Shown here one piece after another: positions 9,001-12,000 of a stretch of DNA of 27,334 nt. Each line of letters starts with the position of its first letter. Position 1 is the stretch's first letter. Origin of the DNA: Escherichia coli (GTDB taxonomy: Bacteria; Pseudomonadota; Gammaproteobacteria; Enterobacterales; Enterobacteriaceae); NCBI RefSeq assembly GCF_003334315.1, contig NZ_QOWR01000063.1. One strand, 5' to 3'. A program made the position numbers.

Positions 9001-12000
9001 GAGGCGTCCTTTGGCCATGGCGGAACCGACGATATAGCCATAGGCGGCGTTGGGGGATTCTTCATGCCATTCGTAGGCGTAGCGTGCCGTGCCGGTAGTT
9101 TTCAGCGGTCCGTCGATGCGGTCATAGGGACGACCGACAACCTTCAGCTGATCGATCGGGTTTTCCCCTGCGGGTTTATCAAATTTCATGCTTGTGCCCT
9201 CGCTTCAGCCAGTACGGAGGCAAGCGTTCGCTTCGCCAACAGGAGTTTAAAGGTGTTTTCAGCGGTGGGATGGGCGCTGGCGAACAGCGCGTCATACACG
9301 GCCTGTGCCCCCTGGGATAGCTGAGCATCCGCAGCCTCAATGCGCCAGGGCTTATGTGCTACTCCACCCAGCGCGACGCGCCCGCTGCCGTCAGGCTGAA
9401 TAATCGCTGCGACCGATACCAGGGCAAAGGCGTAGGAGGCGCGATCGCGCACCTTACGGTAGATATGTTTTCCGCCGAGCGGCGGAGGTAACGTCACCGC
9501 AATGATAAGCTCACCGGGAAGCAGGGCGGTTTCAATGTGCGGCGTTTTCCCCGGTGGGTGATAAAAATCAGCCAGTGTGATACTGCGAGTCTTTCCCTCC
9601 GGCGTGATGGTTTCCACCACCGCATCCAGCAACCGCATTGCGACCGCCATATCGCTCGGATGGGTGGCAATGCAGGCTTCGCTTACGCCTACCACCGCGT
9701 GCTGACGGCTAAAGCCTTCAAGCGCCGCGCAGCCGCTCCCGGGCAGGCGCTTATTGCAGGGCTGATTGGTGTCGTAAAAATAGGGGCAGCGCGTGCGCTG
9801 GAGCAGATTACCTGCGGTGGTTGCCTGATTACGTAACTGACCAGACGCGCCAGCGAGCAGGGCGCGGGAGAGTACCGCGTAATCACGACGCACGCGCTCG
9901 TGAGCCGCCAGGTCGGTGTTCCGTACCAGTGTGCCGATGCGCAGCCCACCCGCGTCGGTCACTTCAATCTTATCGAGCCCGAGCCCGTTCACATCGATAA
10001 GGTGGGTGGGCGTTTCAATTTCCAGCTTCATCAGGTCCAGCAGATTGGTCCCGCCCGCGATAAATTTTGCGCCGGGTACGCGCTGAGCGCTAAGTGCCGC
10101 CTCGGCGGGGGTGTTCACTCGTTCATAGGTAAACGCCTTCATGATTTTATCTCCCCCGCAGCGTCTTCAATGGCGGCAAGGATGTTAGCGTATGCACCAC
10201 AGCGACAGATGTTGCCGCTCATACGTTCACGGATCTCATCGGCAGTTGTTTCTGGAGCGGAAACCAAATCGACCGTGACGTGACTGGGAATGCCATCCTG
10301 AATCTCTTTTAGCACCGCTACTGATGAGCAAATTTGCCCGGAGGTGCAGTAGCCGCACTGGAAGCCATCATGCTTGATAAAGGCCGCCTGCATGGGGTGA
10401 AGATTATCTGGTGAACCCAGGCCTTCAATGGTGGTGATCTCGGCCCCCTGATGCATGACTGCAAGCGTCAGGCAGGCATTAAGCCTGCGACCATTGACCA
10501 GCACGGTACAGGCTCCGCACTGTCCGTGATCGCAACCTTTCTTGGTACCGATCAAATGCAGATTTTCACGCAAAGCGTCCAGTAGCGTGGTTCGGGTATC
10601 CACCTCAAGCTGCTCCGTTTTGCCGTTCACCTTAAGTGTCAGGGGCATTATCTCTGGCGCGGGTGTAGCTGCCGGAACGCTTGCCGCAAGCGTAGAATGA
10701 GGATAAACCACGGCGGTCGCCGCCGTTGCGGCGCTCACTTTAATCAGATCGCGACGGGTCAAACTAAAATCGTGCGGCTCGTGCTTCCCAACCCGATTAT
10801 CTTCGGGGTATTCGCCTTGGTTGCTCATACCAGGCCTCCGGTATTCTAAAGGGGAAAATAAGAGTGCGTTGCGAGAGTGCTGATGCTTTTTTAAACGTTA
10901 AGCATAGTCGGCGACAGCAGGAGGATTATTCTTAAAACGCGAATGCAGCTATGAGCCCGGCTAATAAATTCATGTTCGCCGGGATGTTGATGAGGATGGG
11001 AGTTGTTTTATTGCTTTAGTTGTACGATGCAAAACCGATAAGGAAACCTGTGATTGTCAGCTCTGCATCACCCTGCAAATCTTTGTCACTTCTAATATAA
11101 AAATAGGGAGAAATGATGGTGCTTATATTCATTGGCGATTAGGAAACAATCTTGTTATACAAAACAATACAGTTCTTTATATTTGCCTTGTTTTATGAAT
11201 ACTCCTAAAGAGGTGTATAACATAATGGTACAAGCAGGGTAGATATGAATATATTTGAACAAACTCCACCGAACCGCAGACGTTATGGTCTTGCTGCATT
11301 CATTGGGCTGATTGCTGGCGTTGTTTCCGCATTTGTGAAGTGGGGGGCTGAAGTTCCATTGCCGCCACGTAGCCCGGTGGATATGTTTAATGCAGCGTGT
11401 GGCCCGGAATCATTAATCAGGGCTGCTGGGCAAATTGATTGCTCGCGTAATTTTCTCAATCCTCCGTATATTTTTCTTCGAGACTGGCTGGGGCTGACAG
11501 ATCCCAATGCGGCTGTTTATACCTTTGCCGGGCATGTCTTTAACTGGGTTGGTGTTACGCACATTATCTTTTCGATAGTGTTTGCTGTCGGTTATTGTGT
11601 GGTCGCTGAAGTATTTCCAAAAATTAAACTCTGGCAGGGCTTACTGGCAGGTGCTTTAGCCCAACTTTTTGTTCATATGATTTCTTTCCCTCTCATGGGA
11701 CTGACACCACCTCTGTTTGATCTTCCGTGGTATGAGAATGTCTCTGAAATTTTTGGACATTTAGTCTGGTTCTGGTCTATTGAAATTATTCGCAGAGATT
11801 TACGAAACAGAATTACTCATGAGCCAGACCCTGAGATCCCTTTAGGCTCAAACAGATAATGCATTGAATGATAAAAATGGCGCAAATACAGCGCCATTTT
11901 TACAGGTTAAAAACATTGCTTTTTATATTCTGATGCAGATAGTCAGTGAGTATATCGCGCTACTTCAGGATGATGTAGATCCGAAGAACGCTACAGAAGA

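Follow-up and report, generated by a model that had tools for sequence, protein, structure and literature searches.

The paoABCD operon of an Escherichia coli contig: two ATGA overlaps, a 9-nt spacer and probable translational coupling

The window analysed here, a stretch of 27,334 nucleotides from Escherichia coli contig NZ_QOWR01000063.1 (assembly GCF_003334315.1), carries an intact paoABCD operon in which paoA/paoB and paoB/paoC are joined by 4-nt ATGA stop/start overlaps and paoD follows paoC after 9 nt. We consider it probable that the four genes are read from one polycistronic mRNA, with termination-reinitiation at paoA/paoB and paoB/paoC, and with initiation at paoD driven mainly by its own Shine-Dalgarno (SD) sequence. 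The locus is the known E. coli paoABCD operon, which encodes the periplasmic, Tat-exported aldehyde oxidoreductase PaoABC and its cofactor-insertion chaperone PaoD. Its junction architecture is typical of heteromeric enzyme operons, and has little import beyond correct annotation.

The layout of the locus was taken from the ORF listing and the minus-strand sequence, and the junctions were checked by script. The genes paoA, paoB, paoC and paoD follow one another head to tail, all on the minus strand and each starting with ATG, and the features of the region are as follows.

11245..11859, divergent from paoA: yagU, from the ORF listing
10829..11244, no strand assigned: paoA-yagU divergent spacer, 416 nt, AT-rich (36-41% GC), presumed promoter region
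10835..10839, minus strand: paoA Shine-Dalgarno GGAGG, 6 nt before the ATG; duplex with the anti-SD -9.5 kcal/mol
10139..10828, minus strand: paoA, first cistron, annotated as such; small subunit of 229 aa with two [2Fe-2S] clusters and Tat signal LTRRDLIK
10151..10157, minus strand: SD-like GGGGGAG of paoB, in the 3' end of paoA within conserved Ala-Gly-Glu codons, 8 nt before the ATG; anti-SD duplex -8.6 kcal/mol
10139..10142, minus strand: paoA/paoB ATGA overlap; paoB ATG at 10142-10140, paoA TGA at 10141-10139, TG in common
9186..10142, minus strand: paoB, annotated as such; FAD-binding medium subunit of 318 aa
9197..9201, minus strand: SD-like GAGGG of paoC, in the 3' end of paoB, 7 nt before the ATG; anti-SD duplex -8.0 kcal/mol
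9186..9189, minus strand: paoB/paoC ATGA overlap; paoC ATG at 9189-9187, paoB TGA at 9188-9186, TG in common
6991..9189, minus strand: paoC, large subunit of 732 aa with the molybdenum cofactor (MCD)
6982..6992, minus strand: paoC-paoD junction; paoC TAA at 6991-6993, then the 9-nt spacer GGAGGAACA at 6982-6990, then the paoD ATG
6025..6981, minus strand: paoD, last intact cistron, annotated as such; XdhC-family Moco insertion chaperone of 318 aa
5636..6046, minus strand: chimeric yagP remnant, annotated as a partial LysR pseudogene or as yagP

The identity of the genes was established from whole-region and protein comparisons. Several complete E. coli chromosomes, with the genes annotated paoA/paoB/paoC/paoD, matched bases 5600-11300 at 100% identity, and K-12 MG1655 has the same arrangement (b0286-b0283). 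PaoA and PaoC scored above the cutoffs of their NCBIfam equivalogs (NF008514, 431 bits against 322; NF041671, 1363 bits against 1180). All 318 residues of PaoB aligned with the crystallised PaoB, chain B of PDB 5g5g (E=2.5e-208), and the PaoB cluster record carries Pfam PF00941; no PaoB-specific NCBIfam model was matched, and related equivalogs scored below their cutoffs. PaoD was 100% identical to K-12 PaoD by tblastn, and XdhC-family models matched it below their equivalog cutoffs, which is expected for a family-level relative. A Tat-bearing PaoA, PaoB and PaoC with PaoD as the last gene, the composition of the periplasmic aldehyde oxidoreductase operon of the xanthine oxidase family, were thus all found. 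PaoABC, a heterotrimer with subunits in the ratio 1:1:1, has to acquire its cofactors and be put together while still in the cytoplasm, and it leaves by the Tat pathway in a hitchhiker mode with the signal on PaoA alone (PMC4273604). The role of PaoD has been described (PMC3909100), and paoABCD is named as an operon in the literature (PMC3909100, PMC2997495). The sequence-only reading had assigned the gene names, the junctions and the operon logic correctly, in agreement with the identical genomes, the K-12 annotation and the published paoABCD listing; the interval 9186-10142, where it had placed the coupling, is exactly paoB, and its limits for the paoA-yagU spacer (10829-11244) are right.

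Both overlaps proposed by that reading were borne out to the base, at 10139-10142 and 9186-9189, as was its placement of paoD 9 nt after paoC behind a strong AAGGAGG. This motif, at 6986-6992, overlaps the TAA stop of paoC and has a predicted anti-SD duplex of -11.9 kcal/mol. The three spacings (-4, -4 and +9) all fall within the geometry associated with coupling, that is, co-directional genes at about -8 to +10 nt, and at both overlaps the 3' end of the upstream gene contains the SD of the downstream one (GGGGGAG for paoB, GAGGG for paoC). The starts were assigned from sequence rather than from N-terminal protein data, which leaves a very slight chance, hardly worth entertaining, that the overlaps are artefacts of wrongly picked start codons. 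Against this, PaoB is conserved from residue 1 as M(K/R)xF(T/S)Y and PaoC as MKFD.PA, with the ATG in place in 80 species, and the deposited PaoB chain has 318 residues and aligns from 1 to 318. On the N-terminal conservation and the full-length alignment to 5g5g_B, wrong start codons were rejected.

Co-transcription of paoABCD is most likely, given the EcoCyc-derived listing of the operon, the geometry of the junctions, and the absence of consensus promoters and terminators within it. Spacings of -4, -4 and +9 leave no intergenic room for a terminator and a promoter, and consensus scans of the minus strand gave neither a good promoter nor a good terminator within the four genes. Paired with this is the different possibility that internal promoters in paoA, paoB or paoC drive the downstream subunits, or paoD, independently. 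A relaxed sigma-70 scan of the minus strand did return weak 8/12 matches at 10675-10647, 10170-10141, 9427-9400 and 8891-8863, and such scans are blind to promoters that depend on activators or alternative sigma factors. However, promoter hits in the region were at about the number expected from shuffled sequence (5 vs 4.1), no match of at least 9/12 lay within the operon, the coding region is ∼60% GC, and the transcription unit is listed as paoABCD (PMC10666635), so that independent internal promoters appear very improbable. The same scans returned no minus-strand match of at least 9/12 anywhere in 5600-11300, the spacer included. A low-intensity sigma-E genomic-SELEX peak has been reported at K-12 position 302738, corresponding to about 10993 in the window (PMC5493296), and is the sole published sign of RNA polymerase binding that we found for the paoA-yagU spacer. 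Apart from this peak and statements about the operon, the searchable literature yielded no mapped pao start site and no test of coupling. Rfam searches showed nothing in or beside the pao genes, with only IS009 after yagU, and the window contained no tRNA according to ARAGORN.

By analogy with other E. coli ATGA pairs, the pao genes are most likely coupled in translation. In a study of native pairs of this type, 4 of the 5 tested were translationally coupled, the exception being bioBF, and removal of the SD lowered reinitiation in 4/5 (PMC6728339). Spacers of ∼20 nt almost abolish reinitiation, subunits of heteromeric complexes are over-represented 4.5-fold among gene pairs at -8 to +10, and junctions of +9 to +12 are thought to initiate largely on their own SD (PMC10666635). 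By this reasoning, a single mRNA for paoABCD would start somewhere in the paoA-yagU spacer. A ribosome ending paoA at the UGA would sit on the paoB AUG within AUGA and re-initiate there, aided by GGGAG 8 nt upstream, and a ribosome terminating at the end of paoB would restart on the paoC AUG in the same way. Coupling of this kind would tie together the output of PaoA, PaoB and PaoC, the three subunits of a 1:1:1 heterotrimer whose assembly, cofactors included, has to take place in the cytoplasm, ahead of export. At paoD, with a 9-nt spacer and a near-consensus SD, initiation would probably be mainly SD-driven, with coupling at most partial. Some coupling between paoC and paoD is nevertheless possible, since AAGGAGG overlaps the paoC stop and a terminating ribosome would therefore cover it.

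RNA structure around the starts was examined in the window and across related loci. Hairpins at the start sites that might enforce coupling were rejected as a candidate, because 90-nt folds at the four starts were unremarkable (z from -1.08 to +0.59). Neither these folds nor accessibility calculations in 80 related loci gave a stable or conserved hairpin over the paoB or paoC starts. Across the 80 loci, the unpaired probability at the paoB start was 0.40, against 0.38 for random coding RNA. The paoB start is thus no more open than random coding RNA, and bears no mark of design for free entry of 30S subunits. At the paoC start the value was 0.50 against the background of 0.38, and these modelled accessibilities suggest that reinitiation and some independent initiation are both possible at paoC.

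The junctions were then compared in 80 related loci, fetched by PaoB alignment from one-genome-per-species contigs out of 592 detected relatives, and sharing 71-85% identity in PaoB. The set spans alpha-, beta- and gammaproteobacteria (Enterobacterales, Pseudomonas, Xanthomonadaceae, Burkholderiales, Rhizobiales, Sphingomonadales and Caulobacterales), and the paoA-D homologues in these loci were located with their stops and starts. The paoA/paoB junction was a -4 ATGA in 80/80. This invariance holds despite variation in both the sequence and the length of the last 3-10 residues of PaoA, which read, for example, EIKS, RPA, VKA or ERA; in three loci (L054, L064 and L065) the PaoA tail is 5-6 residues longer and the ATGA is kept. 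Positions 0 to +3 of the junction were invariant, and the flanks were low in information. Codon 2 of paoB always began with A (AAG 31, AAA 19, AGA 18, AGG 12, AAC 1), and where it encodes Arg the codon was AGR in 30/30 cases, although at other positions of paoB and paoC in those loci only 7% of Arg codons are AGR. At paoC, codons beginning with C occur freely at position 2 where the overlap is absent, providing an internal control for the constraint on paoB codon 2. An SD-like motif precedes paoB in most of the 80 loci, with a mean strength of -8.6 kcal/mol against -3.3 kcal/mol at random intragenic sites (p=1.5e-35).

The paoB/paoC junction behaved differently, and has drifted between -4 and +5 while the FeS/FAD junction stayed frozen as ATGA in three proteobacterial classes. 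Its spacing was a -4 ATGA in 17/80 loci, +1 to +5 in 60/80 and +15 to +30 in 3/80, so that 77/80 lie between -4 and +5, and the SD upstream of paoC was also stronger than the control across loci, though less so (mean -6.0 against -3.3, p=3.5e-20). Within Enterobacterales the overlap was found in E. coli and Siccibacter only. Where E. coli has GCA CAA GC ATGA, its relatives have GCA TAA, 2-4 nt and ATG (GCA TAA CC ATG in locus L010), and PaoB is 318 aa long in E. coli against 316 aa in the relatives. From these alignments, the E. coli overlap looks like the outcome of the loss of an ancestral TAA, with PaoB extended by two residues to the TGA in the start region, and its ATGA would be a lineage-specific variant of a junction that is always tight.

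This history bears on the proposal that the overlaps arose neutrally, as by-products of the turnover of stop codons in a compact operon, with free ribosomes initiating on internal SDs and translation not strictly coupled, which we regard as unlikely for the operon as a whole, though a good deal more credible than either misassigned starts or internal promoters. The paoB/paoC junction flips between -4 and +1 to +5 in related species, and the E. coli form differs essentially by the loss of a TAA, which lengthens PaoB by two residues; each of the two junctions has an SD-like motif, there is comparatively little structure around the paoC start, and bioBF offers a precedent for an uncoupled ATGA (PMC6728339). 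It is at paoB/paoC that neutral overlap with independent SD-driven initiation fits best and is most plausible. On the other side, the paoA/paoB ATGA was retained in 80/80 loci while the same genomes took many indels at paoB/paoC, 4/5 of the tested E. coli ATGA pairs are coupled (PMC6728339), and all but 3 of the paoB/paoC variants remain inside the range of efficient reinitiation. The invariance at paoA/paoB could be explained simply by a dual constraint, since no base of the ATGA can change without loss of the paoB start or of the paoA stop, and selection for coupling need not be involved. The drift of paoB/paoC in the same genomes argues for, without proving, something more than this dual coding constraint at paoA/paoB.

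These comparisons raise a further, tentative possibility, which we consider less likely than not: the paoA/paoB ATGA may be an obligatory feature of the clade. Strict termination-reinitiation would then have the FeS and FAD subunits made by the same ribosome or from the same mRNA for co-translational assembly, mimicking a fused FeS-FAD polypeptide. The observations on which this suggestion is based are the 80/80 invariance, the forced AGR at paoB codon 2, and the rebuilding of an SD within PaoA tails of varying length; the FAD/Moco junction also looks looser than the FeS/FAD junction. In eukaryotic xanthine and aldehyde oxidases, FeS and FAD domains are carried on one fused polypeptide. With one junction frozen and the other drifting, the pao locus offers a clean natural test case of what keeps an overlap in place: selection acting on coupled translation and on assembly during translation, or merely dual coding constraint.

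Beyond the structural genes, conservation was more limited. An XdhC-like gene followed paoC in only 13 related loci, at spacings from -4 to +74, and the arrangement of a stop, GGAG or GAG, and a start 9 nt past the stop was shared by five sequences, namely the window and 4 other loci. Downstream of paoD, the first 26 codons of yagP are what is left of a fifth, MocA-like cistron, and its remaining codons encode the C-terminal part of a LysR regulator; yagP has the SD AGGAGGAGG at 6051-6059 and overlaps paoD by 22 nt, and the paoD/yagP pair is listed at -22 (PMC10666635). The absolute conservation of the FeS/FAD junction and this MocA-like remnant fused to a LysR fragment are mildly interesting by-products of the analysis.

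Junctions of the pao type are common and have been catalogued before. Co-directional E. coli genes lie at -4 more often than at any other single distance, and of 2,987 such pairs 24% fall within -8 to +6 (PMC10666635); in our count over the first 71 K-12 pairs of Table S2 of that paper, 6 (8.5%) were at -4. A second small peak, at +9 to +12, comprises 203 pairs; 201 of these have been characterised, and 194 belong to polycistronic transcripts (PMC10666635). The ATGA pattern is non-random genome-wide, yet ordinary, being the commonest junction type in bacterial operons. The tables of Huber et al. 2023 list paoA/paoB and paoB/paoC at -4, both marked 'CMPLX yes', and paoC/paoD at +9, and in Table S3, with EcoCyc cited as the source, paoC-paoD is assigned to a polycistronic transcript, paoABCD (PMC10666635). 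With the junctions tabulated there and the operon described in the PaoABC/PaoD literature, the pao junction architecture is already known, a textbook feature of a characterised operon.

The closest known system is paoABCD of E. coli K-12 (formerly yagTSRQ), in which the genes, their order and lengths, the junctions (ATGA, ATGA, then +9) and the divergent yagU are all the same. PaoB is ∼99% identical between the two, with few substitutions and no difference at the junctions, but beside yagP, where K-12 has CP4-6, the strain analysed here carries another phage-like island. Among pairs whose coupling was studied by Huber et al. in 2019 and 2023 (hyfHI, astDB, ydbH/ynbE, as well as menDH), the -4 ATGA, the SD in the upstream 3' end and the encoding of heteromeric-complex subunits are all as in pao; those pairs were tested experimentally, whereas pao figures in that work solely as entries in supplementary tables. 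The paoC/paoD junction resembles the E. coli +9 to +12 class, where it is listed under paoABCD, in having a +9 spacer that holds the SD, and differs in that its SD overlaps the upstream stop (T-AAGGAGG). In operons of the xdhABC type, such as that of Rhodobacter capsulatus, the structural genes are likewise followed by a Moco-insertion chaperone of the XdhC family (PMC2997495). Unlike the xdhABC-type enzymes, PaoABC is periplasmic and Tat-exported, carries MCD as its cofactor, and stays a single heterotrimer, without dimerising. Finally, the FeS-FAD-Moco order of the pao genes is the domain order of the single-chain aldehyde oxidases, with PaoA matching positions 5-157 and PaoC positions 576-1295 of TIGR02969.

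The gene annotated as yagP, directly downstream of paoD, is assembled from parts of two gene families:

5636-6059 (including its SD), minus strand: 'yagP' ORF, a chimera of two gene pieces

Its SD is AGGAGGAGG, its first 26 codons are MPAPVVLILAAGRGERFLASGGNTHK, and its start overlaps the 3' end of paoD by 22 nt. On comparison with Enterobacterales loci, codons 1-26 matched the beginning of a gene for a MocA-family cytidylyltransferase, and codons 25-136 matched a LysR regulator in its C-terminal portion. Both pieces have counterparts in Mixta (pao locus L005), where the cytidylyltransferase gene (9101-9664) lies directly 3' of paoD with a -1 overlap, and the LysR gene is its convergent neighbour (9792-10676). 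The cytidylyltransferase gene also directly follows paoD in Pseudescherichia (locus L004, 9120-9719, -4 overlap), and the same order is found in other Enterobacterales. As yagP joins a MocA-like stump to a LysR C-terminal piece, a single rearrangement in E. coli removed both a fifth pao cistron and the regulator adjoining it.

LysR-family genes also accompany related pao loci in more distant bacteria. In many alpha- and beta-proteobacterial loci (L009, L013, L018, L031, L057 and others of the comparison set) such a gene is found upstream of paoA at a distance of up to ∼1-2 kb, in most cases in the opposite orientation, and this recurrence hints that the pao operon is natively controlled by a LysR regulator. 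E. coli retains a LysR gene near pao only as a fragment. Some 55-75 nt ahead of the paoA start, the spacer between paoA and yagU contains a short palindrome, a possible binding site for a regulator:

∼10880-10905, minus strand: palindrome ATGCTT-N11-AAGCAT, read from the spacer sequence

The GC content of the pao genes (6025-10828) is ∼55-63%, versus 36-41% in the spacer (10829-11244). PaoB shares 71-78% identity with homologues in Bradyrhizobium, Sphingomonas, Pseudomonas and Massilia, and of 5426 complete E. coli genomes only 3605 contain paoB. The high GC, the similarity to distant genera and the patchy presence together suggest that pao is an accessory operon with horizontal mobility.

One database protein, P0003 (451 aa), combines a sequence 98% identical to PaoB with the ferredoxin domains of PaoA (PF00111 and PF13085). 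This predicted PaoA-PaoB fusion, present in a single assembly only, probably reflects an error in sequencing or a 1-nt indel where the two genes share ATGA, and illustrates how readily the two frames merge.

Beyond the operon, two further features were noticed:

11865-12063, plus strand: IS009 candidate sRNA (Rfam, 195 bits; gathering score 117)
∼15060-17585, minus strand: ecpC, fimbrial usher gene, from annotation in matching strains

The sRNA candidate is immediately 3' of yagU, at the position of a hypothetical ORF of 76 aa in the annotation (11864-12094). Strains 100% identical to the ecpC part of the window carry a frameshift in this gene according to their annotation. Neighbouring genes also overlap slightly (ecpD/ecpE, -32; ecpC/ecpD, -11), and ykgM and ykgO have 1 nt in common.

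On its other side, yagP adjoins a phage-like remnant (1-5500), which encodes a major capsid, a baseplate protein and an integrase, and shares only ∼95% identity with the best-matching complete genomes of E. coli:

∼4070-5404, minus strand: tyrosine integrase, part of the phage-like remnant

ARAGORN detected no tRNA in the window, whereas in strains identical to it in the pao region a tRNA-Thr adjoins the LysR fragment. In K-12, CP4-6 and intF occupy the site where the window has the phage-like remnant.
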